From IMG/VR virus record IMGVR_UViG_3300045988_104496, positions 1 to 31,694 of that record: a DNA stretch of 31,694 nt; one strand, 5' to 3'. Below, piece by piece: positions 4,985-27,158 of the stretch; within the stretch, counting starts at the first letter, position 1; each line of letters starts with the position of its first letter. Below the pieces are notes generated by a model that worked only from the letters and a program-made list of their open reading frames with translations, made no database searches and was not told where the DNA came from. A program made the translations under genes and the position numbers. This DNA is from a virus (taxonomy: Duplodnaviria > Heunggongvirae > Uroviricota > Caudoviricetes > Peduoviridae).

Positions 4985-5012
4985 TAAAGAAAAGGCGGGC
5001 AATTCGCCCGCC
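4985..5012 (-). terminator. Rho-independent terminator on the minus strand
   Basis: Minus strand reads GGCGGGC-gaatt-GCCCGCC followed by TTTTCTTT. Lies downstream of the low-GC accessory ORF and upstream of the FI start. Confidence 0.6.
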
Positions 5013-5218
5013 TGTCCTGATTTGAACTCACTCATTTTCCGACTGACAATTTACATAGCCCAAAAGTTATCAAATCTGACGGTCTGCTTTGAACAAGAAG
5101 CGGACATTTGCCTGTCAGGGTATATACCGCTCTGCGGTTATTATCCAGAATCAATAATTCATCTGAGTTGGATTACATATAAAACATAGTTACCCCATGA
5201 ATAACCATTAGCAGATTA

Positions 5219-5812
5219 TCAATTATGTAAATCTTTTGTTTTATGTTCTTTGGTGTGTTGTGACAACAAATGGCTATAGCGTTTAAGCAAAATATTAGAA
5301 AGATTAAGCTCATTCATGAAGTGTTCTTCTAATAAGTAACCATCAATATCAACTTTAATATCATTACCACTTTTCATCTTCTGTAACGTAGATTTTACAC
5401 GCTCCAGCAGGATGCTTTGCTCATGGTAATAGTCCATAAGAAGAGTAACATCCTCTTTATCAAGCTTACTTAATTCGCTGAAGTAGGATTTAAACACTTT
5501 ATCAGTCTGGTTTAATGCAATCTGTAAGCGAGGCCCCCCTAATGATTTGACATTAATGGCAAAAGGCTCGCCAACAAAATGCTCCGAATTTTCGTCAAAG
5601 CCAATATATCTCGTTTTATCAAGAAAAGTGAGAGCGCGATGGTTATTAGCGATTTCATATGCAAACATTGTTCTGATACTGTCCCTCTCAGCCTCCATAG
5701 TTATATCATCACGATGATTTGTATAAAATATATTTCCAACAAAGAGAACCATAGCAAGAATCACTGAACTTGCCTCCCAGTTAATATTTTTTAATCGTCG
5801 CTTAGTAAACAT
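5219..5812 (-). CDS. Low-GC accessory (moron) protein at the P2 Z/fun position; predicted single-pass membrane protein of unknown function
   Basis: 197-aa ORF with an AAGGTG Shine-Dalgarno 4 nt before the ATG. N-terminus is a basic stretch (KRRLK) followed by a hydrophobic helix (SSVILAMVLFVGNIFY). The gene and its flanks (about 4890..6033) are markedly AT-rich compared with the neighbouring tail genes. Sits between G and FI, where P2 carries Z/fun. Confidence 0.6.
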   Translation of the reverse strand: MFTKRRLKNINWEASSVILAMVLFVGNIFYTNHRDDITMEAERDSIRTMFAYEIANNHRALTFLDKTRYIGFDENSEHFVGEPFAINVKSLGGPRLQIALNQTDKVFKSYFSELSKLDKEDVTLLMDYYHEQSILLERVKSTLQKMKSGNDIKVDIDGYLLEEHFMNELNLSNILLKRYSHLLSQHTKEHKTKDLHN

Positions 5813-6033
5813 ACCGCACCTTAATTATCAAAAATATTCCTTCAGTGTTATCTGGTTAGCCTAAACCAAGTCATTAAAGTCTGCAGGATATCATATACAT
5901 AAAATGTATTGATTAGAATTTGCACTAATAAAATAATGCTTTACTAAAATCTACTCCAGACACAGAGCGGCCTGTCAGATTAGGCTTTACTCTGTGCCAT
6001 AGATATGTTTGCTCACTCCAGAGATCATACAAC

Positions 6034-18190: not shown

Positions 18191-19963
18191 ATGACCATCA
18201 CCACAGACACCACTCTTTTACACGACCCGCGTCGTCAGGCGGCGCTGCTGTACTGGCAGGGGTTTTCCGTGCCGCAGATTGCCGCCATGTTGCAGATGAA
18301 ACGCCCGACGGTGCAGAGCTGGAAACAGCGCGACGGCTGGGACAGCGTTGCCCCCATCAGCCGTGTCGAAATGAGCCTGGAAGCGCGGCTGACCCAGCTC
18401 ATCATCAAACCGCAGAAAACCGGCGGTGACTTCAAGGAAATTGACCTGCTGGGACGCCAGATTGAACGACTGGCACGGGTAAACCGCTACAGCCAGACCG
18501 GCAACGAGGCAGACCTTAATCCGAACGTCGCTAACCGCAACAAAGGCGGGCGTCGCAAACCGAAAAAGAATTTTTTCAGTGACGAAGCCATCGAAAAGCT
18601 GGAGCAGATTTTCTTTGAGCAGTCTTTCGACTATCAGTTGCACTGGTATCGCGCCGGGCTTGAGCACCGCATCCGCGATATCCTGAAATCCCGCCAGATT
18701 GGCGCGACGTTTTATTTTTCCCGCGAGGCACTGCTGCGCGCCCTGAAAACCGGTCATAACCAGATTTTTCTGTCGGCCAGTAAAACGCAGGCGTATGTGT
18801 TCCGCGAATACATCATCGCCTTTGCCCGTCTGGTGGACGTTGACCTTACCGGTGACCCGATTGTCCTGGGCAATAACGGCGCAAAACTGATTTTTCTCGG
18901 CACCAACTCCAACACCGCGCAGAGCCATAACGGCGACCTGTACGTCGATGAGATTTTCTGGATCCCGAATTTTCAGGTACTGCGTAAGGTGGCATCAGGT
19001 ATGGCCTCACAGAGTCACCTGCGCTCGACCTATTTCTCCACCCCGTCCACGCTGGCGCACGACGCCTACCCGTTCTGGTCAGGTGAACTGTTCAACCGGG
19101 GACGTGCCAGCGCCGCCGAACGTGTGGAAATCGACGTCAGTCATAACGCCCTTGCCAGCGGGCTTCTCTGTGCGGACGGCCAGTGGCGGCAGATTGTCAC
19201 CATTGAGGACGCCCTGAAAGGCGGCTGCACACTGTTCGACATTGAGCAGCTCAAACGTGAAAACAGCGCCGACGATTTTAAAAACCTGTTCATGTGTGAA
19301 TTTGTTGACGACAAGGCGTCGGTGTTCCCGTTCGAGGAGCTGCAACGCTGCATGGTCGACACGCTGGAAGAATGGGAAGACTATGCACCCTTTGCCGCCA
19401 ATCCGTTCGGCTCCCGCCCGGTATGGATTGGTTACGACCCGTCACACCGTGGCGACAGTGCCGGATGCGTGGTGCTGGCACCGCCGGTGGTGGCCGGTGG
19501 CAAATTCAGAATACTTGAGCGTCACCAGTGGAAAGGCATGGACTTTGCCACTCAGGCTGAATCCATCCGCAAACTCACCGAAAAATACAACGTCGAATAC
19601 ATCGGTATTGATGCCACCGGCCTCGGTGTCGGCGTGTTCCAGCTCGTGCGCTCGTTCTATCCCGCCGCGCGCGATATCCGCTACACACCGGAAATGAAAA
19701 CCGCAATGGTGCTCAAGGCAAAAGACGTTATCCGCCGTGGCTGTCTGGAATATGACGTCAGCGCCACCGACATCACCAGCTCGTTTATGGCTATCCGCAA
19801 GACCATGACCAGCAGCGGACGCAGCGCCACTTATGAGGCCAGCCGCAGCGAGGAAGCCAGCCACGCCGACCTCGCCTGGGCGACCATGCACGCCCTGTTA
19901 AATGAGCCACTCACCGCCGGTATCAGCACCCCGCTGACATCCACCATTCTGGAGTTTTACTGA
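18191..19963 (+). CDS. P: Terminase large (ATPase) subunit gpP
   Basis: Starts MTITTDTTLLHDPRRQAALLYWQGFSVPQIAAMLQ..., which I recognise as the P2 gpP N-terminus; GAGG 5 nt upstream of this ATG. The six-frame ORF begins 10 codons earlier. Confidence 0.9.
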   Translation: MTITTDTTLLHDPRRQAALLYWQGFSVPQIAAMLQMKRPTVQSWKQRDGWDSVAPISRVEMSLEARLTQLIIKPQKTGGDFKEIDLLGRQIERLARVNRYSQTGNEADLNPNVANRNKGGRRKPKKNFFSDEAIEKLEQIFFEQSFDYQLHWYRAGLEHRIRDILKSRQIGATFYFSREALLRALKTGHNQIFLSASKTQAYVFREYIIAFARLVDVDLTGDPIVLGNNGAKLIFLGTNSNTAQSHNGDLYVDEIFWIPNFQVLRKVASGMASQSHLRSTYFSTPSTLAHDAYPFWSGELFNRGRASAAERVEIDVSHNALASGLLCADGQWRQIVTIEDALKGGCTLFDIEQLKRENSADDFKNLFMCEFVDDKASVFPFEELQRCMVDTLEEWEDYAPFAANPFGSRPVWIGYDPSHRGDSAGCVVLAPPVVAGGKFRILERHQWKGMDFATQAESIRKLTEKYNVEYIGIDATGLGVGVFQLVRSFYPAARDIRYTPEMKTAMVLKAKDVIRRGCLEYDVSATDITSSFMAIRKTMTSSGRSATYEASRSEEASHADLAWATMHALLNEPLTAGISTPLTSTILEFY

Positions 19964-20997
19964 TGAGCAAGAAAAAAGGGAAAACACCGCAACCTGCGGC
20001 AAAAAAAATGACCGCCAGCGCCCCGAAAATGGAGGCATTCACCTTTGGTGAGCCGGTGCCGGTGCTCGACCGCCGTGACATTCTGGATTACGTCGAATGT
20101 ATCAGTAACGGCAGATGGTATGAGCCGCCGGTCAGCTTTACCGGTCTGGCAAAAAGCCTGCGTGCTGCCGTGCATCACAGCTCACCGATTTACGTCAAAC
20201 GTAATATTCTGGCTTCAACGTTTATCCCGCACCCGTGGCTTTCCCAGCAGGATTTCAGCCGCTTTGTGCTGGATTTTCTGGTGTTCGGTAATGCGTTTCT
20301 GGAAAAGCGTTACAGCACCACCGGTAAGGTCATCAGACTGGAAACCTCACCGGCAAAATATACCCGCCGTGGCGTGGAGGAGGATGTTTACTGGTGGGTG
20401 CCGTCCTTCAACGAGCCGACAGCCTTCGCGCCCGGCTCCGTGTTTCACCTGCTGGAGCCGGATATTAATCAGGAGCTGTACGGCCTGCCGGAATATCTCA
20501 GCGCCCTTAACTCTGCCTGGCTGAATGAGTCGGCCACGCTGTTCCGCCGCAAGTATTACGAAAATGGCGCACATGCCGGATACATCATGTACGTCACCGA
20601 TGCCGTGCAGGATCGCAACGATATCGAAATGCTTCGCGAAAACATGGTGAAGTCGAAAGGCCGCAACAACTTTAAAAACCTGTTTCTCTATGCCCCGCAG
20701 GGGAAAGCCGACGGCATTAAAATTATCCCGCTCAGTGAAGTGGCGACGAAGGACGATTTTTTTAATATCAAAAAAGCCAGCGCCGCTGACCTGCTGGACG
20801 CACACCGCATCCCCTTTCAGTTGATGGGTGGCAAGCCGGAGAACGTCGGGTCACTGGGTGATATTGAGAAAGTGGCAAAGGTCTTTGTCCGCAATGAGCT
20901 AATCCCGTTACAGGACAGGATTCGGGAAATAAACGGCTGGCTCGGCCAGGAGGTCATCCGCTTTAAAAACTACTCACTGGACACTGACAACGGCTGA
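19963..20997 (+). CDS. Q: Portal protein gpQ
   Basis: 344-aa ORF, P2 Q size; its ATG overlaps the P stop (ATGA). Confidence 0.9.
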   Translation: MSKKKGKTPQPAAKKMTASAPKMEAFTFGEPVPVLDRRDILDYVECISNGRWYEPPVSFTGLAKSLRAAVHHSSPIYVKRNILASTFIPHPWLSQQDFSRFVLDFLVFGNAFLEKRYSTTGKVIRLETSPAKYTRRGVEEDVYWWVPSFNEPTAFAPGSVFHLLEPDINQELYGLPEYLSALNSAWLNESATLFRRKYYENGAHAGYIMYVTDAVQDRNDIEMLRENMVKSKGRNNFKNLFLYAPQGKADGIKIIPLSEVATKDDFFNIKKASAADLLDAHRIPFQLMGGKPENVGSLGDIEKVAKVFVRNELIPLQDRIREINGWLGQEVIRFKNYSLDTDNG

Positions 20998-21002
20998 ACA
21001 TC

Positions 21003-21024
21003 GCCGCCTGCGGGCGGCTTTTTT
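21003..21024 (+). terminator. Rho-independent terminator after Q
   Basis: gccgcc-tgcg-ggcggc followed by TTTTTT, 6 nt after the Q stop. Confidence 0.7.
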
Positions 21025-21166
21025 ACACCCCGTCATCACGCCCTCACACGCTCACCACCGCACAAAACACCCCGCAGACACACCAACGCCCTAGCAGGCC
21101 AAGTAAACGCCTTCACGACGCGCTCAGACGCTGAAAAAATAAAATCCGCACCACCGCCAGCGCGCA

Positions 21167-21185
21167 GTGCTTTCCCCGCCTCGCC
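21167..21185 (-). other. cos: cos site (19-nt P2 cohesive end)
   Basis: Plus strand gtgctttccccgcctcgcc is the exact reverse complement of the P2 cohesive end GGCGAGGCGGGGAAAGCAC as I remember it; position next to Q is as in P2. Confidence 0.7.
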
Positions 21186-21509
21186 CGCCCGCTTCATAGG
21201 GCGCTTTTAATGCAATTGCATTAAAACACAGTAACCGCATCAACACTGGTAACAAACATGGAAAAGCATGGCAACTAACACACGCAAAAAAATGCACTTA
21301 ATGAATGCAGTAATAAAAATCTCAGGAAATTGACAATTCATTTATTTTTTCAAAATCCCAGTTAGTTAAAGGCTCGCTATCATTACAAGCAATCAAAAAA
21401 TGTCTTAGCTCTAACAGCAAGTAGTAATAGTAGTTGCCACCAACAAGCGTTAACATTACCATAACAAACAACAAGCATTCCTACACCTACATCAGATGAA
21501 CAGGTAATT

Positions 21510-22874
21510 ATGATTAATTTAATTATGGGTGGTTTTCCCGACCACTACGACCACTGGAAACCATTCAGCCAAAATAATGGAGAATTCTCATTTCTTTTAT
21601 CACGAATGTTTGAAAACACCTCCGATGGTATTCGCAAAAAACTATCCCCATTAAGCAGCAATGTACTATCTTATCTTGAAAAACTCCCAACAATATTCAT
21701 GAGTGAAGCTTATCAAATAGAGGGAGCAAAACCTTATTATGTCGACATACGAATTGGAAGAATTTCAAATATTCACATTAAGGGAAAAGAAATCAACTTC
21801 CAATTTGCAATCACCCATACACACAATGAAATCAAAATATCAGACGCCAAAAGTGTTGAAAGCAGTTTAGAACTCGGAACTTATGGCCTTAAAAGAACAC
21901 ACTGGGCCATAAAAGACAAAAATATAGATGATATCCTTAAGACATTTGGTATTAACCAAAATGCACAAGTGGATAGCAGTCCAGCGCCTCTCCCAGACGA
22001 AGATAGCACATTATTAACCGTAAATAGTTTACAAGAATTTATTGAAAAAGTTCTCCATATAACAGCAGATATGGATGAGGAGATTTTTTACAGGGGTCAT
22101 TCAGATTCATCTTATGAACTTGCACCATCTCTTTTCAGAAAATATGAAAATGGGAACTATAAATTTCTACATAATGAAATCAACCTTGTTAAAGAAGCAT
22201 TGAGCGCAAGACCCTCAGAATTCATTGATGATACATCAATGCTTGATAAACTTGTAAGAATGCAACATTATGGCATACCTACTCGCTTACTTGACATCAC
22301 ATCAAATCCATTAATTGCACTTTATTTTGCATGCAGTAGTATAAATTCCGACAAAAACGATATCGATGGTCAAGTAATAATATTTAAAACACACAGAGAG
22401 AACATTAAATTTTTCGATTCCGACACTGTCAGTTGCATATCTAATTTATGCATGCTATCAAAAGACATGAAAGACAAGCTTTCTTTCGAAGAAAGAAATA
22501 ATGATTTTAACAACTCTCATGCTTGCCTTAAACTCTTAGAATCCATAAAGCATGAAAAACCATATTTTCAAAGCATAATAAATCCAGATGATTTGGAAAA
22601 GATAATTTTTGTAAAAAGCAGGATAAATAATGAAAGAATATCATCTCAATCCGGTGCCTTTTTATTATTCGGTAATAACGCCGTTTTTCCTGAGATATCC
22701 AACGATCAGGCAGATAATTCACCATACAACTTTAAGACAGAAAAAATAAACATCAGAGACAAAAAGAAAATTTTAAAAGAACTTGCCGTGCTCAATATTA
22801 CTGATGCCACTGTATATTTAGGATTGGAAAGAACAATGAAACTAATCACAGAAAAATACACATTAAAAAATTAG
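21510..22874 (+). CDS. FRG-domain protein, function unknown; candidate anti-phage cargo gene
   Basis: 454-aa ORF in a strongly AT-rich island. Contains the two FRG-domain signature blocks, EEIFYRGHSDSSYELAPSLFR and LVRMQHYGIPTRLLDITSNPLIALYFAC, recognised from memory of the Pfam FRG family. AGGT 6 nt before the ATG. Sits where P2 has old/tin. Confidence 0.65.
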   Translation: MINLIMGGFPDHYDHWKPFSQNNGEFSFLLSRMFENTSDGIRKKLSPLSSNVLSYLEKLPTIFMSEAYQIEGAKPYYVDIRIGRISNIHIKGKEINFQFAITHTHNEIKISDAKSVESSLELGTYGLKRTHWAIKDKNIDDILKTFGINQNAQVDSSPAPLPDEDSTLLTVNSLQEFIEKVLHITADMDEEIFYRGHSDSSYELAPSLFRKYENGNYKFLHNEINLVKEALSARPSEFIDDTSMLDKLVRMQHYGIPTRLLDITSNPLIALYFACSSINSDKNDIDGQVIIFKTHRENIKFFDSDTVSCISNLCMLSKDMKDKLSFEERNNDFNNSHACLKLLESIKHEKPYFQSIINPDDLEKIIFVKSRINNERISSQSGAFLLFGNNAVFPEISNDQADNSPYNFKTEKINIRDKKKILKELAVLNITDATVYLGLERTMKLITEKYTLKN

Positions 22875-22982
22875 CATTCCATAACCAAAATATCTCCATA
22901 CTTCCCCGCAGAAATTAAGGCTACGGGGAAATAACATCAGTAAGTATCTTAAGAACAATATAATCACTTACAGGAACCTGTA

Positions 22983-23960
22983 TTAAAGTGCAGTACTTGC
23001 TTTTAATGTAAGCACCTTTGATCTATAACGTTGTTCAATTACCCCCATAGAATGCAATCGTCCAAATAACTTTTTGGCAGTATGAGTTTCTCTTGCACAC
23101 GCTGCATCCTTTATCATTTTCCAATATTCAATTTCTTGAGACATTAAAAGATGCTGCTTATTCCTGACTTTTAAAGAACCGCCCAAAACAATAACACCTG
23201 TTACCAACTTAGGCTTTTCTCTACTATAAATTTTTGTTTTATCCGCATGCATCACATGACCATGCTTATTTATTATTTTGCGAATCACTGAACAAAATAG
23301 TCTATTAACGTTTTGTCCTGAAAAAGTTAGATCATCAACATAAACAGACATATTTACGTGTAGTTTATTACAAAGTTGGTGTATTTCTCCGAACATTCTT
23401 GAATTTGCAAAATATGCAAGAGGCATACTAATCCTGCTACCTGTAGGCAAACGCCCATAGCAAGTACATATATACGATAATACATCCGCAACATCAGATG
23501 ACATCTTCATAACAGAAAAAAAGAATGAAAATATCATTTCTCTAGTAGTTGATGGAAAAAAAGCCCTGATGTCGGTTGTCATCAACCTTTCATTATTAAG
23601 GTGGATTTTAGCATTAGTAACATTAGAACATCCCTTCTTTCCAGAATGTAGATAATCTGGCAAGGTAATTCGCGATAGCAGACTTGCAATACGAGTATGC
23701 ACCACATCTAATTTTTCTAATGGTTTTTGTATCTTACGTGGCTTTCCGTTTTTAGATAACTGTTCAAAAATAGAATAATTGCCTTCATCTTTTTTTAAGG
23801 TTGATAAATCCCCTACATCAACCCCCAATAAAGAAGCCAATTTCCTTTTACTTCTCATTTTATAAAACGGCGAATCAATTATATCGTAAGATTTATTTTT
23901 AGTGGAAATTTTGAGTTTTATTCGTCTTTTCATTTTTCTTATTCGCCCACTCAATAACAT
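22983..23960 (-). CDS. Retron-type reverse transcriptase (start codon uncertain)
   Basis: Contains the retron RT hallmarks in order: NAxxH (VTNAKIHL), motif A (TDIRAFFPS), motif B-like LPTGSRISMPLAYFANS, catalytic YVDD (SVYVDDLTF) and the retron VTG motif (KLVTGVIV). Overall length and N-terminal pattern resemble Ec86-class RTs as I remember them. Alternative starts at 23933 (MKRRIK) or 23858 (MRSKRK); none has a strong Shine-Dalgarno. Confidence 0.8.
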   Translation of the reverse strand: MLLSGRIRKMKRRIKLKISTKNKSYDIIDSPFYKMRSKRKLASLLGVDVGDLSTLKKDEGNYSIFEQLSKNGKPRKIQKPLEKLDVVHTRIASLLSRITLPDYLHSGKKGCSNVTNAKIHLNNERLMTTDIRAFFPSTTREMIFSFFFSVMKMSSDVADVLSYICTCYGRLPTGSRISMPLAYFANSRMFGEIHQLCNKLHVNMSVYVDDLTFSGQNVNRLFCSVIRKIINKHGHVMHADKTKIYSREKPKLVTGVIVLGGSLKVRNKQHLLMSQEIEYWKMIKDAACARETHTAKKLFGRLHSMGVIEQRYRSKVLTLKASTAL

Positions 23961-24231
23961 CTAATACTTTACCAGCTAAATTTAAACGGAAACGCTTAGA
24001 TAAACGCCCCTGCGTACCTAACGATTCTGAAAAAAATACTAAAGAAGATACCGGCATATCGAAATGGGAGGCGTAACGCTGTAAAACATCAATTGTAGGC
24101 GACCAAACCCCACTTTCGAGTTCTACTATTTTTTCTTTTGGAATACCTAAAGATGTTGATAAATCAACCAATGACTCTTTATGGTATTGCCTTATTAAAC
24201 GAAGGGCTCTGTGTAACATAGGCAACTCCAT
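23899..24231 (-). CDS. XRE-family helix-turn-helix protein, directly upstream of the RT gene
   Basis: LHRALRLIRQYHKESLVDLSTSLGIPKEKIVELESGVWSPTIDVLQRYASHFDMPVSSL fits the Cro/C1-type HTH pattern. The likely true start is the second Met at 24219, which has GGAG 6 nt upstream. The 3' end overlaps the longest RT reading frame. Confidence 0.65.
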   Translation of the reverse strand: MELPMLHRALRLIRQYHKESLVDLSTSLGIPKEKIVELESGVWSPTIDVLQRYASHFDMPVSSLVFFSESLGTQGRLSKRFRLNLAGKVLDVIEWANKKNEKTNKTQNFH

Positions 24232-24255
24232 GCTATTGAAACTAGGGAGGACGCA

Positions 24256-24411
24256 TTACTCATCACCCCCTTCAAAGTAGTCCAGTGCTCGAGTGGCTAA
24301 ATCAAACAGTCTAATACCCCATTTGATTAATTTCCAAACATAACCAGCCCACTTTTTCAGGTTTGACTTGTTCTGCGCCTGCTGTTCGTTGGTTAATTTA
24401 TCATTCTTCAT
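24256..24411 (-). CDS. Small ORF (51 aa) with a consensus Shine-Dalgarno; hypothetical small protein
   Basis: AAGGAG, a 6-nt spacer, then ATG at 24411; encodes MKNDKLTNEQQAQNKSNLKKWAGYVWKLIKWGIRLFDLATRALDYFEGGDE with a Trp-rich amphipathic segment. The 3' arm of the upstream hairpin (CATAAG) abuts and partly overlaps the SD. Confidence 0.4.
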   Translation of the reverse strand: MKNDKLTNEQQAQNKSNLKKWAGYVWKLIKWGIRLFDLATRALDYFEGGDE

Positions 24412-24660
24412 GATTTGCTCCTTATGCCCATAGTGTGCAAACGATATGTCTGCTCCAACACTATGGTTCGCCCTCATAAGGATGAGATTGAACAGCACTA
24501 GCCCCCTGCTCCACGAACCCTTGGTCGCCCAAAGGGTTCGAATACCCATACGCCATACCGCCTGATCCTGTGACTCTTGTCGCTGGCAGGGGCGTTGCGC
24601 GGGGTAAATGTTAGAAAGCGTTAACTTTCCACGGGTAAAGTTACCCAATTGATGGCGATG
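24412..24660 (-). ncRNA. GC-rich structured leader; candidate retron msr-msd ncRNA (boundaries not determined)
   Basis: A GC-rich patch inside an AT-rich island. On the minus strand there is a long imperfect hairpin of about 15 bp at 24421..24480, a 9-bp stem cgaaccctt/aagggttcg at 24514..24540, and further short hairpins at about 24612..24650. The only ORF covering it needs a TTG start and has odd amino-acid composition. No convincing a1/a2 inverted repeat pair was found by eye. Confidence 0.35.
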
Positions 24661-24827
24661 TATCTCACTAACTAACCAATGTTTGCATCATAACAAGTAA
24701 ACCGTTGTATTTGATCTCCCTATATATAATATTTTTTTATATTAAATAAACAATTAATAAATATTAAACATAAAACATATTAAAGCGACCTCCTCTATGC
24801 CTTCATTGCATTGAATTTTAACGTTTT
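24661..24827 (-). promoter_or_regulatory. AT-rich putative promoter region for the ncRNA/small ORF/HTH/RT operon
   Basis: Minus strand reads TTGTTT, a 17-nt spacer, then ATTATA/TATATA around 24745..24715, followed by gggagatcaaat... Positioned between the A stop and the structured leader. By-eye promoter call only. Confidence 0.3.
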
Positions 24828-27158
24828 TTATATAAAAAATGACACTTCATCTTGAAATCCGAACCACTCATCAGCGACCGGATACGTGAATTTTTTCCCG
24901 TCATAATTTACGGTCGCGCCACGCGCCAGCGCCTCAAGCTCCCATCGCTGCGGCCTGATACCGTTCTGAGCAAGGTCAACGCGGATACGGGTAATTTGCA
25001 TTCGTTCCGACCGGGCCAGTCTGGCCGATGGTGCAATTTCATGTGGTTTTAACGGGCTTCCGTTTCTTTGCTGACGATTTGGCGTTCTCCGACCGTGTTT
25101 TAATGCACCTCTGAGCGCCCTCACGACCTCCGGGTCACTCCATTCGATAACACCGTCATCAACCAGATTAAGCACTGCTGCGGCGTGCTCAGAAGGTGTG
25201 GGAACCGGTAACGAAGTATCACCACCGGTGAGTTTTCCACAGTTATTGACAGGACTCCGAGGCGCGGCGATGCCGCTTTTTAAAGTCAAAGGCTCAACGA
25301 CCGGAACTTTCGGCACAATGCGCCAGTCCGTCGTTCTGGTGATATGAATATGACGCGCGCCGAGATGCGGCGCGTAAATGCCGACCACTCTCTCGACTTC
25401 TTCCTCGTACTCGTTAACGTCATCCGACGGGATACGGGCGACTCTGACAGTCTGACAATCGCGCGGGACATTTGCCCCACCCTGCGCGCTGATATACAAC
25501 GCAAAATCACCACTGTCTGCGGCGGCGCGTGCAGCCTCGACGCGCTCGTCAAACTCATCAGCAATGCTGACGCCGCGCGGCAATTTGCGTAGTTCACGGT
25601 AAGCCCCCATTGTCGGCAGGCCAACCGTTTTAAATTGCGGGATGCGCCACGTTGACGCCCATGCGCTAACAGCCGCTGCAGTGTCTTTCAGCGGCCTGCC
25701 GGTGTCGTTATCGAGCTGACCATCCAGTGCATAGCCGTCGATGTTTTTTGAAATGTATTTCGCGATATATCCCGCAGCACCGCCCCGGTTAAGATGTTTT
25801 GCCTGAAAACGGTTTCGCGCGGCTCCTCTTTCGTCGCCATCCTCTTTGAGCGCATAGCGACGCATGATTTCGATAATCTGGTTACGCTGGCGCGGATTAC
25901 AAAAAAGCATCATATGCCAGTGCGGCGTTCCGTCGTGGTGTGGCTCGACGACACGCAAACCGTAGACCTGTAAATCATTATCCTTGAATGCCGTGCGCAT
26001 CAGGCTCCAGATACGGCAGAGATAACGCTGCGCATCCTTTGGATTAAATGCCTCATCGTTCCAGCCGTGATTTAGCTGGACGGTTTTACTTTCGCCTTTT
26101 CTGACCTGACGTGTCGGGTGATACTTTGACGGCGCGGTCAGCGTGATAAACATCCCCACATCACCCTCTGCTGCGGCGTAACGCTCAATACCGGCAATGG
26201 TGTTCATCAGCTCCATCCGGCGAATTTCAGGATTAGAAATACTGCCCATCACCTTACTGATAAGGTCGATGCGCTCGCCGGTTTCCCTGTTTTCGAGATC
26301 ACACGATTTAAGAAATTCCAGATTTGCCTGGCGGCGTGCACGCACATCACGAATGGCATGTTTACTGGCATAAGGAGAACGGTCTTTATTGACCTCCCCG
26401 ACAGCAATCAGTAACGCCTCATGCCAGCGCATACGCTGGCCTTTAAGCTGATGGGTCCACCACTCATCGTTAAACAGACGGACAATGGCAGAATATGCCT
26501 GCCTCGTGGTCATCTGCCCTTTACGGTATTTTTTCCAGTAGAGAGGGGAAATATTGAAAGCACGTGCAGCACCAGCAACATGACCATAGAGGTGAGCCTG
26601 CGCCTCATCCGTAAACAGCGATTCTTTTTCGCCATGCGCATCCACCCAGGCATCGCAGAGTTCCTCATACATCATGAAAAGCTGCGATGAGATACGGGCG
26701 GCAAACTTTTTCAGCTCCTTGTCATTCATCCCCGGCAGACGCGCATAATGGTCACGCTCTGCCAGAAACAGCAACGACGCGTCGGTGTTCATTTCATGGC
26801 GCTGATTCACACGCTCAATGCGCGGCCATAAACGACGCTGAAAAGTGGATGTGAGAAAATAAAACCCGTGCACCGGGCTTTTATTGCGCCGGATGTAGTC
26901 ATAGCGTGAAGTAAACAGCGAGCGCAAAAAGTAAGGCAGGCGGTTAATCGTGGATAAAACACCTTGCACCTGACGCATCTCGTCACGTGTAAGGGGTCTT
27001 TCGCGCCCGACAGCCTCGCGTGGCGCGTTCCATGCATAAGCACCGGTAAACGCCTTACCGGTGCCTGCGGCAAATGCTGACGGAGGGACAAAACGCCCGG
27101 AGGCTTTAACGGCCATATGAGCCAAAAGCCTCTGAACAACGCTTGCTGAGTTGCTCAA
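24828..27158 (-). CDS. A: Rolling-circle replication initiator (P2 gpA-like)
   Basis: 776-aa ORF with the HUH metal-binding motif (VEPHHDGTPHWHMMLF) and paired active-site tyrosines (YIAKYISK). The true start may be the Met at 27116, giving about 762 aa close to the P2 A size. Confidence 0.9.
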   Translation of the reverse strand: MSNSASVVQRLLAHMAVKASGRFVPPSAFAAGTGKAFTGAYAWNAPREAVGRERPLTRDEMRQVQGVLSTINRLPYFLRSLFTSRYDYIRRNKSPVHGFYFLTSTFQRRLWPRIERVNQRHEMNTDASLLFLAERDHYARLPGMNDKELKKFAARISSQLFMMYEELCDAWVDAHGEKESLFTDEAQAHLYGHVAGAARAFNISPLYWKKYRKGQMTTRQAYSAIVRLFNDEWWTHQLKGQRMRWHEALLIAVGEVNKDRSPYASKHAIRDVRARRQANLEFLKSCDLENRETGERIDLISKVMGSISNPEIRRMELMNTIAGIERYAAAEGDVGMFITLTAPSKYHPTRQVRKGESKTVQLNHGWNDEAFNPKDAQRYLCRIWSLMRTAFKDNDLQVYGLRVVEPHHDGTPHWHMMLFCNPRQRNQIIEIMRRYALKEDGDERGAARNRFQAKHLNRGGAAGYIAKYISKNIDGYALDGQLDNDTGRPLKDTAAAVSAWASTWRIPQFKTVGLPTMGAYRELRKLPRGVSIADEFDERVEAARAAADSGDFALYISAQGGANVPRDCQTVRVARIPSDDVNEYEEEVERVVGIYAPHLGARHIHITRTTDWRIVPKVPVVEPLTLKSGIAAPRSPVNNCGKLTGGDTSLPVPTPSEHAAAVLNLVDDGVIEWSDPEVVRALRGALKHGRRTPNRQQRNGSPLKPHEIAPSARLARSERMQITRIRVDLAQNGIRPQRWELEALARGATVNYDGKKFTYPVADEWFGFQDEVSFFI

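Follow-up and report, generated by a model that had tools for sequence, protein, structure and literature searches.

A complete Type VI retron related to Retron-Vpa2 in the gpA-cos slot of a P2-like phage

The window analysed here (the whole stretch of 31,694 nucleotides of phage DNA) contains a complete and intact Type VI retron, a system of an already known kind. It comprises genes for a reverse transcriptase (RT), an HTH protein and a small protein (SP), together with a structured RNA in which the SP coding sequence is embedded; gene content, gene order and family assignment, as well as the architecture of the RNA and its covariation, were observed directly. Our preferred reading, to which we give a probability of about three in four, is that this locus is an anti-phage system of the Retron-Vpa2 lineage, carried as gpA-cos cargo by the P2-like phage P2_2H1 and working by a Vpa2-type mechanism. 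Its parts and neighbors are:

19963..20997: cos/portal, flanking the retron locus on one side
22983..23933, minus strand: retron RT of 316 aa, its gene sharing 35 nt with the HTH gene
23899..24219, minus strand: HTH protein of Cro/C1 type, 106 aa, PADLOC HTH_VI
24256..24411, minus strand: SP MKNDKLTNEQQAQNKSNLKKWAGYVWKLIKWGIRLFDLATRALDYFEGGDE, 51 aa, predicted toxic effector, directly upstream of the HTH gene and with a Shine-Dalgarno sequence (SD)
24232..24681, minus strand: hybrid RNA (hyRNA), ~450 nt, 3' end approximate
24687..24695, minus strand: putative extended -10 promoter TGTTATGAT, read from the sequence; the transcript would start near 24681
24828..27158: gpA, flanking the retron locus on the other side

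The longest ORFs for RT and HTH protein (22983..23960 and 23899..24231, both on the minus strand) coincide exactly with those reported in a preliminary description of this DNA; because its coordinates end at 24231, half of the system was left out. The locus lies in a low-GC island (~21000-25000, GC 0.32-0.43 against ~0.55). What we take to be the P2 cos sequence is matched exactly at 21167..21185, which places the retron between gpA and cos/portal. As the preliminary description had recognized, this gpA-cos slot is where P2 carries old/tin; it is a known P2 defence hotspot (PMC9122126). Old/tin and the other cargo of the hotspot (Rousset et al. 2022, PMC9122126) share with the retron the slot and, as we predict for our locus, a function in defending against rival phages, and Old, too, reacts to lambda and to RecBCD status. 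Their proteins are, however, unrelated to those of the retron.

The same island holds a gene for an FRG-domain protein (21510..22874), directly adjacent to the RT gene and convergent with it, whose product matches the defence-candidate family PDC-S15 (7e-98). Could this protein be the retron effector, making a new retron-FRG system? We find this scarcely credible: among the related loci examined, FRG homologues occur only in two sequence-identical copies, and in other alleles the space from the RT to the portal gene is either taken by different genes or contains no gene at all. The FRG gene was accordingly rejected as a retron partner and is regarded as separate cargo.

The retron locus is 100% identical to that of phage P2_2H1. 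The exact allele is present in 60 of 5426 complete E. coli genomes (~1%, or ~2% when all alleles are counted), and several alleles, of ~100, 84, 78 and 67% DNA identity, occur across E. coli genomes. The order ncRNA-SP-HTH-RT, which is that of Type VI operons (bioRxiv 10.1101/2025.10.22.683967), is kept in P2-like prophages of Serratia, Yersinia and Klebsiella, and also in Vibrio. The defence role of this particular allele is predicted from homology, and one could suppose that the locus is decayed and inactive, or that it serves the life cycle of the phage instead of defence. Against this, none of the three ORFs is disrupted and each has a length typical of its family, compensatory changes preserve the RNA helices, the same sequence is present in all 60 genomes, and diverged alleles retain the architecture; we consider such a reading very improbable.

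The RT contains NVTNAKIH, TTDIRAFFPS, SVYVDDLTF and KLVTGV; all the signatures named in the preliminary description (NAKIH, DIRAFFPS, YVDD, VTG) are thus in the translation, and the YVDD catalytic site is intact. The NAxxH and VTG motifs, the intact YxDD and best profiles from retron RT clades mark it as a retron RT. A profile search, one of the checks that had been proposed, put PADLOC RT_VI on top (E=1.1e-105, model positions 1-278 of 279) with 350.9 bits, where the next model, RT_III-A, reached 151.8, and by profile score the enzyme falls in the clade 3 / RT_VI group of Mestre et al. 2020. All 25 top PADLOC matches are retron RT models, NCBIfam gave weak matches to retron St85, TIR and Ec67 RT only, and 328 homologues were found at E<=1e-20. 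Translation probably starts at the ATG at 23933, a little downstream of the longest-ORF start at 23960; this agrees with the 316 aa annotated by PGAP and with the 316-317 aa of most of the listed full-length homologues.

The earlier claim that this is a retron-class RT and neither a group II intron nor an Abi-type enzyme holds. Pfam gave RVT_1 alone (1e-7) and Rfam showed no intron RNA, which rules out a group II intron RT. RTs of the Abi-P2/AbiK type have ~500-600 aa with a C-terminal helical domain and are without an ncRNA; these are ruled out by the length of 316 aa, the 25 listed PADLOC matches, all to retrons, and the conserved ncRNA. The RT reported earlier in the P2 hotspot, in P2-EC30, is presumably Abi-P2 and so a different enzyme, an AbiK-type protein-priming polymerase instead of a retron RT. 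(A paper on the structure of the Abi-P2 polymerase cites P2-EC30.)

For the HTH protein, PADLOC HTH_VI was likewise on top (E=7.2e-30, model positions 1-91 of 92). It is a Cro/C1-type protein (cluster 2_1, 91-110 aa) encoded upstream of the RT gene and overlapping it. Its start is probably the ATG at 24219, which is preceded by GGAG, slightly downstream of the longest-ORF start; the ATG at 24231 is not kept in relatives. HTH-associated retrons had been thought to be catalogued already, and they are, as Type VI of Mestre et al. 2020 (PMC7736814). The N-terminus, M[L/I]HRALRLIRQYH, is identical to that of the Vpa2 HTH protein, including R7, and the R7D mutation is toxic in Retron-Vpa2 (bioRxiv 10.1101/2025.10.22.683967). 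We predict that the HTH protein is a repressor of reverse transcription and/or an SP antitoxin.

Does the retron have an effector? The preliminary description had seen none, and there is indeed no ATPase, nuclease, NDT or 2TM gene, but it had missed the 51-aa SP gene. This gene lies immediately upstream of the HTH gene, the position by which SP is defined in Vpa2 and Sen3. PGAP annotates the protein as WP_001754918.1, and it matches phrog_15287 (3e-39); identity is 76% to an Acerihabitans homologue and 55% to one from UBA5654. With the Vpa2 SP it has in common a C-terminal aromatic helix and an F(D/E)GGD tail (33% over 24 aa). Of the related loci examined that carry an HTH gene, nearly all have an ORF of 47-65 aa, homologous or analogous to SP, at this position. 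SP is an experimentally shown toxin in Retron-Vpa2 (10.1101/2025.10.22.683967) and in Retron-Sen3 (10.64898/2026.04.27.721009), and from these two systems we infer that the SP in the window is probably toxic as well.

One might still read the locus as a two-gene RT + HTH retron without a toxin effector, the HTH protein being only a transcription factor and the mechanism unknown. The lack of the four effector types named above would fit, as would PADLOC 2.0, which is without an SP model. This is nonetheless highly unlikely given the conservation of the small ORF, its recognition by PGAP and PHROGs, and the toxicity of SP in two systems. RefSeq NC_049386 annotates instead a 130-aa TTG-start ORF (24256..24648), which we rejected: it has no family match and crosses conserved RNA helices, and its 3' part contains the real gene, that of the 51-aa SP. 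Because of this spurious ORF and the missing SP model, pipelines see "RT + HTH, no effector".

A search for msr-msd, also proposed earlier, was answered by folding and alignment, which located the equivalent upstream, at 24681..24412. This non-coding msr-msd-like domain, a riboregulator and the SP coding sequence together make up the hyRNA, which is closed by a long-range inverted repeat. Its elements, 5' to 3' within the transcript except for those nested in the riboregulator, are:

24649..24659, minus strand: conserved 5' element AUCGCCAUCAA, nearly invariant in the alignment
24614..24647, minus strand: msr-like hairpins H1 (UGGGUA/UACCCG) and H2 (GAAAGU/GCUUUC), each 99.1% paired
24545..24604, minus strand: variable long stem-loop, predicted msd core, with stem base CCC/GGG, GCGC/GCGU
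24514..24540, minus strand: hairpin H6 CGAACCCUU/AAGGGUUCG, whose loop carries repeat 1, GGGCGAC (24524..24530)
24502..24513, minus strand: IR1 UGGAGCAGGGGG, 5' arm of the long-range closing helix
24490..24497, minus strand: 5' arm UGCUGUUC of a long-range helix into the SP coding sequence
24418..24482, minus strand: riboregulator (anti-SD, repeat 2, H8, Shine-Dalgarno)
24475..24482, minus strand: anti-SD UCCUUAUG
24467..24473, minus strand: repeat 2, GGGCGAA, inside the riboregulator
24428..24466, minus strand: hairpin H8, 13 of 15 pairs compensatory
24418..24426, minus strand: Shine-Dalgarno of SP CAUAAGGAG
24237..24250, minus strand: IR2 CCUCCCUAGUUUCA, 3' arm of the closing helix, just past the SP stop codon

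The unconstrained fold of the hyRNA (-159.2 kcal/mol, z=-5.0) has three arms leaving a central node. From end to end the RNA can be aligned with its counterparts at 18 other loci, that of Vpa2 (L094) among them, so that the ncRNA upstream of SP and the SP coding region share one conserved fold. Over the 19 loci, 90-94% of cells are paired, against 38-52% with partners slid, and 30-35 pairs are changed on both sides. These figures are somewhat inflated by the kinship of 13 of the 19 loci, which are enterobacterial, and by the use of a structure that came from the window itself.

Individual helices agree with this picture. Pairs changed on both sides number four of six in H1 and two of six in H2, and H6 is 93.5% paired with three compensatory pairs. 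The base of the predicted msd stem is conserved while its interior varies in length and sequence between loci; it sits where the Vpa2 msDNA maps, at the position of the long stem-loop, and is probably the template for reverse transcription. IR1 pairs with IR2 in the unconstrained fold and across loci (92% paired, two compensatory pairs), and IR2 is highly conserved though non-coding. The IR1:IR2 geometry resembles a2:a1. A search for a canonical a1/a2 pair with a branching G found no conserved G after IR2. The UGCUGUUC arm pairs with GAACAGCA at 24380..24387, SP codons E9-Q10-Q11, and all 19 loci keep this helix 100% paired, although three of its pairs are changed on both sides.

The riboregulator has a local fold of -28.8 kcal/mol (z=-3.8), in which SD and anti-SD form an 8-bp helix and a 5-bp hairpin contains the AUG. 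Across loci the helix between anti-SD and SD is 91.4% paired and includes four compensatory pairs, and each lineage has its own matching pair, which reaches 12 bp in Vpa2. A small hairpin, H7 (CUCAU/AUGAG), also covaries and overlaps the anti-SD, as an alternative conformer. The CGCC of the 5' element is complementary to both 7-nt repeats (CGCC/GGCG 94.7% paired); the Vpa2 counterpart has CGUC, with GGACGA in both repeats.

Upstream of the RNA, 13 enterobacterial loci have TGnTAnnAT at one shared position of the alignment, which suggests an extended -10 promoter; a sigma-70 consensus scanner did not call the site at 24687..24695, because there is no -35 match. An initial fold (24225..24725) had the RNA closed by TAGGGAG/CTCCCTA (24716-24731 with 24234-24249) and was rejected, since other loci do not share the 5' arm, which is located upstream of the conserved extended -10. 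An Rfam scan of 20900..25000 at a permissive E-value gave no match, which is no evidence either way as the Type VI ncRNA has no Rfam family.

How close is the locus to known Type VI systems? To Retron-Vpa2 it is alike in the order ncRNA-SP-HTH-RT, in hyRNA size (~450 nt, ~470 nt in Vpa2), in the HTH N-terminus with R7 and in the C-terminal aromatic helix and GGD tail of SP. The unconstrained folds show the three-arm layout, the sequestered ribosome-binding site and AUG and the closing inverted repeat described in the Vpa2 preprint. Both 7-nt direct repeats are placed as in the preprint's model, where one lies in the msd loop, at the 5' end of full-length msDNA (10.1101/2025.10.22.683967), a position that the H6 loop repeat fits. 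Vpa2-type SP, anti-SD riboregulator and 7-nt repeats together assign the locus to the Vpa2-like ('Large') sub-lineage. The two differ in sequence (RT 54%, HTH 50% and SP ~33% identical, the last over the C-terminus), SP length (51 against 55 aa), repeats (GGGCGA against GGACGA), msd interiors, which are unrelated in sequence, and setting (a P2-like phage in an E. coli host against a Vibrio parahaemolyticus chromosome). L094 encodes SP as printed for Vpa2; its RT reads YVDD, where the preprint writes YADD. Retron-Eco12 is an E. coli Type VI retron phylogenetically related to Vpa2 that defends against lambda-vir with no detectable basal msDNA (10.1101/2025.10.22.683967). It is of the same species and type as the window retron, which may be identical with it or another of the E. 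coli alleles; the comparison was made by description, and an accession search for Eco12 found nothing.

The mechanism of HTH-associated retrons, called essentially uncharacterised in the preliminary description, has since been addressed in two preprints (10.1101/2025.10.22.683967 and 10.64898/2026.04.27.721009). By homology with these systems, we propose the following course. A promoter near 24690 would drive the ~450-nt hyRNA, holding both the template (msd stem and H6) and the SP toxin coding sequence, followed by the HTH and RT genes. At rest, RT, HTH protein and hyRNA would form one complex in which the HTH protein restrains reverse transcription; with the SP ribosome-binding site locked in the anti-SD helix and the start codon in a hairpin, little or no SP would be made. 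Phage recombination or anti-RecBCD functions (lambda Red/Gam type) would trigger accumulation of msDNA, whose 5' stem-loop, carrying the complement of GGGCGAC, would hybridize to GGGCGAA of repeat 2 and open the SD. SP would then be translated and arrest the cell (abortive infection), protecting the lysogen population.

A different course is known from another enterobacterial Type VI retron, Retron-Sen3 (10.64898/2026.04.27.721009), and the mechanism is consequently not uniform within Type VI. There, SP and ssDNA are made constitutively, SP is neutralized post-translationally by the HTH antitoxin, and inhibition of RecBCD frees the toxin independently of ssDNA levels. Retron-Sen3 resembles our locus in its SP-HTH-RT order, in IR1-IR2 pairing around SP, in a ribosome-binding site buried in the ncRNA and in a trigger tied to lambda Red / RecBCD (10.64898/2026.04.27.721009). 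The toxicity of HTH R7D in Vpa2 also makes an antitoxin-like HTH role compatible, and the two models are not mutually exclusive. However, the Sen3 SP belongs to cluster cl2075 (SPs of ~75-79 aa, three-helix bundle) and, at ~79 aa, has no detectable similarity to the Vpa2-like 51-aa SP of the window. A tblastn search with Sen3 and Yersinia SPs found no cl2075-type SP in the window or in 95 related loci (L001-L095), and membership of that lineage was rejected. The hyRNA, moreover, can be aligned with that of Vpa2 down to both direct repeats and the co-evolving anti-SD, and Eco12 gave no basal msDNA. We therefore regard Sen3-type operation as unlikely here, though a real possibility, and favor the Vpa2-type switch.

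Two further ideas are distinctly speculative. The AUCGCCA of the 5' element shares its CGCC core with the complement of repeat 1; the element could occupy both GGGCGA repeats in the resting state and might thus be an internal mimic of the msDNA 5' stem-loop. Separately, the retron may be a functional replacement for Old in P2-like phages.

The locus is a phage-borne, E. coli-native Type VI retron and adds no new kind of system. Standard phage annotation misses half of it. It would be a convenient native-host setting in which the translational switch put forward for Vpa2, with its dependence on msDNA, could be studied. If the 5' element is a mimic, there would be a three-way competition between 5' element, msDNA and riboregulator that neither preprint spells out; if the retron replaces Old, it would be a sensor of lambda Red/Gam or RecBCD status in P2-like phages.

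By profile search, the family assignment of the reverse transcriptase (RT) and the helix-turn-helix (HTH) protein encoded upstream of it is beyond doubt. Both ORFs named in the preliminary description are present on the minus strand (22983..23960 and 23899..24231), and the retron motifs quoted there (NAKIH, DIRAFFPS, YVDD and VTG) are all found in the translation. The RT matches the PADLOC model RT_VI over its full length (E=1.1e-105; next-best model RT_III-A, 5e-45) and the HTH protein matches HTH_VI (7.2e-30); Pfam finds RVT_1 in the former and HTH_3, below threshold, in the latter. The true starts are probably 23933 for the RT (316 aa) and 24219 for the HTH protein (106 aa), since PGAP annotates identical E. 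coli copies with these starts, most full-length RT homologues among those listed are 316-317 aa long, and ATG 24219 has GGAG ahead of it while ATG 24231 is not kept in the alignment of related loci.

Missed in that description, a 51-aa ORF (24256..24411) with a strong Shine-Dalgarno (SD) sequence ahead of it lies directly 5' of the HTH gene. This ORF is the small protein (SP) of Type VI retrons. An ORF of 47-65 aa occupies this position in nearly all HTH-bearing loci (80 related loci from genome contigs), with a polar basic N-terminus, an aromatic/hydrophobic helix and an acidic or glycine-rich tail in common. Databases hold SP as WP_001754918.1 (PGAP) and phrog_15287 (function unknown). The resulting order, ncRNA-SP-HTH-RT, is exactly that described for Type VI (bioRxiv 10.1101/2025.10.22.683967). 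Experiments established SP as the toxic effector of Retron-Vpa2 (bioRxiv 10.1101/2025.10.22.683967) and of Retron-Sen3 (bioRxiv 10.64898/2026.04.27.721009). In the RefSeq record of phage P2_2H1, a 130-aa TTG-start ORF is called over the ncRNA and the SP gene (24256..24648, minus strand; NC_049386 29205..29597), and the record thus hides both the RNA and the predicted toxin; in identical E. coli copies PGAP calls the 51-aa SP instead.

The window is the genome of a P2-like phage, with the following features, the first five in minus-strand reading order:

27158..24828: gpA
24695..22983, minus strand: the retron
21510..22874, plus strand: gene for a 454-aa FRG-domain protein, convergent with the RT gene (Pfam FRG 2e-21; PADLOC candidate PDC-S15 7e-98; phrog_4962)
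21167..21185: the P2 cos sequence, by an exact 19-nt match
Beyond cos: the portal gene
5219..5812, minus strand: 197-aa ORF in a low-GC patch (~5000-6000), with a hydrophobic N-terminal segment (phrog_3829, unknown function)

The retron island is low in GC (0.32-0.43) and, as the preliminary description stated, sits in the slot of old and tin in P2, which is the gpA-gpQ hotspot (PMC9122126); retrons were already catalogued in this gpA-cos hotspot in 2022 (PMC9122126). The retron region is 100% identical in Escherichia virus P2_2H1 (NC_049386) and in 60 of 5426 complete E. coli genomes, and further E. coli alleles exist at ~84, 78 and 67% identity. Relative to the P2_2H1 genome the window is circularly permuted, with cos internal and int-ogr-gpD contiguous, and so is not a prophage junction; ~950 bp of the 32,662 bp are absent, at the window ends. 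The family also occurs beyond P2-like phages, beside QatB/QueC/TatD genes in Dickeya (locus L092, 3727..5951) and in a non-phage island near yeiP in E. coli C5 (L086).

The FRG gene, which adjoins cos, is separate hotspot cargo. We considered it as part of the retron and rejected this: it is absent from the other retron loci compared, sequence-identical copies aside, and the RT-to-portal interval of other alleles holds different genes or none. The N-terminal ~165 residues of its product match no family. In E. coli WP7-S17-ESBL-01 (L001, 1..2085), ISEc12 lies beyond the FRG gene, at the expected place of the cos/portal region. Between the convergent RT and FRG genes, an 8-bp GC-rich hairpin (22904..22928; CCCCGUAG / CUGCGGGG), with a U-tract on neither strand, may be a bidirectional transcription barrier. 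The 197-aa ORF, flanked by tail-fibre assembly and sheath genes (the P2 Z/fun slot), is a second cargo gene; it has no match in PADLOC or NCBIfam and is possibly a further defence or exclusion gene.

Over its full 473 nt, the stretch between 24689 and the HTH start can be aligned with 18 other loci (E. coli alleles, a Klebsiella phage, Serratia, Yersinia, Acerihabitans, Dickeya, Vibrio, Xenorhabdus and Vpa2), as conserved blocks with a stem of variable length between. A structure drawn by hand was tested on this 19-locus alignment against slid partners and 500 shuffles. It paired 90.3% of cells (39-52% with slid partners) and both sides had changed in 35 of 78 pairs (10-22 when slid), values reached by 0 of 500 shuffles, with controls that are somewhat flattering as the structure came from the window sequence itself and 13 of the 19 loci come from enterobacteria. 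In the corrected structure, riboregulator included, pairing reaches 93.9% and 30 of the 57 pairs are compensatory; such changes recur in independent lineages. Hairpins H1, H2, H6 (whose loop carries GGGCGAC) and H8 are the best-supported elements by covariation, together with three helices on the minus strand:

24475..24482 with 24419..24426: anti-SD:SD helix, 8 bp, well supported by covariation
24490..24497 with 24380..24387 (SP codons 9-11): long-range helix, 8 bp, paired in 19 of 19 loci
24502..24513 (IR1) with 24237..24250 (IR2, directly past the SP stop codon): closing helix

Matching anti-SD/SD pairs are lineage-specific, and own pairs are in most cases more stable than cross-lineage pairs. 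Unconstrained folding of 24681..24232 (-159.2 kcal/mol, z=-5.0) recovers every listed best-supported helix. Folded alone, the riboregulator holds the SD inside a helix and the AUG inside a 5-bp hairpin. A CUCAU/AUGAG hairpin (24473..24486, minus strand), which overlaps the anti-SD and is 84.9% paired with some compensatory change, could be an alternative, SD-open conformer. The conserved TGnTAnnAT at 24687..24695 could plausibly act as an extended -10 promoter. With its three arms, sequestered ribosome-binding site and AUG, closing inverted repeat and two 7-nt direct repeats, the RNA corresponds to the hybrid RNA of Zhang et al. for Vpa2.

Is the element then closer to Vpa2 or to Sen3? A V. 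parahaemolyticus locus (L094) encodes the SP printed as that of Vpa2 in the Sen3 preprint (bioRxiv 10.64898/2026.04.27.721009), and we accordingly regard it as either the Vpa2 locus itself or a copy nearly identical to it. Its RT and HTH protein are 54% and 50% identical to those of the window, the HTH N-termini being identical, R7 included; the SPs are 33% identical, over the C-terminus. A search of the window and the related loci compared turned up no cl2075-type (Sen3-like) SP. On these grounds we infer that the retron belongs with Vpa2 rather than Sen3.

The likeliest mechanism is drawn wholly from homology with other Type VI retrons. In Vpa2, RT, HTH and hybrid RNA associate in a complex, with HTH repressing reverse transcription and SP translation silent; an 86-nt msDNA accumulates with lambda Red Beta+Exo, Gam acting via RecBCD inhibition, and turns on SP translation, in trans too, for which its 5' stem-loop is needed (bioRxiv 10.1101/2025.10.22.683967). 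Eco12, a Type VI retron of E. coli, protects against lambda-vir without basal msDNA (bioRxiv 10.1101/2025.10.22.683967). In the window, the msd stem together with H6 (~24514..24604) would serve as the corresponding msDNA template. A complement of repeat 1 would be present in the 5' stem-loop of the msDNA and could pair with repeat 2, which is sited between the anti-SD and H8. Control as known from Retron-Sen3, where SP and ssDNA are constitutive, HTH is a post-translational antitoxin and RecBCD inhibition is the trigger (bioRxiv 10.64898/2026.04.27.721009), is less likely here, given the lineage and the co-evolving riboregulator, though the two models are not mutually exclusive.

A conserved 5' AUCGCCA (24649..24659) is complementary to both repeats, GGGCGAC (24524..24530) and GGGCGAA (24467..24473), on the minus strand. 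At the Vpa2 locus, the one lineage concerned, all three have changed together (CGUC with GGACGA twice), suggesting a contact between RNA segments for which msDNA could be a competitor.

The definition of Type VI retrons dates from 2020 (PMC7736814), PADLOC detects them, and this one is already in RefSeq within a named phage. The preliminary description recognized a known system correctly; its parts list was incomplete and its picture of the state of knowledge out of date, two preprints (Vpa2 and Sen3) having dissected Type VI experimentally. The system is real, intact, interpretable and already known; its 5' CGCC element, a lead from a single lineage, is the sole possibly new detail.
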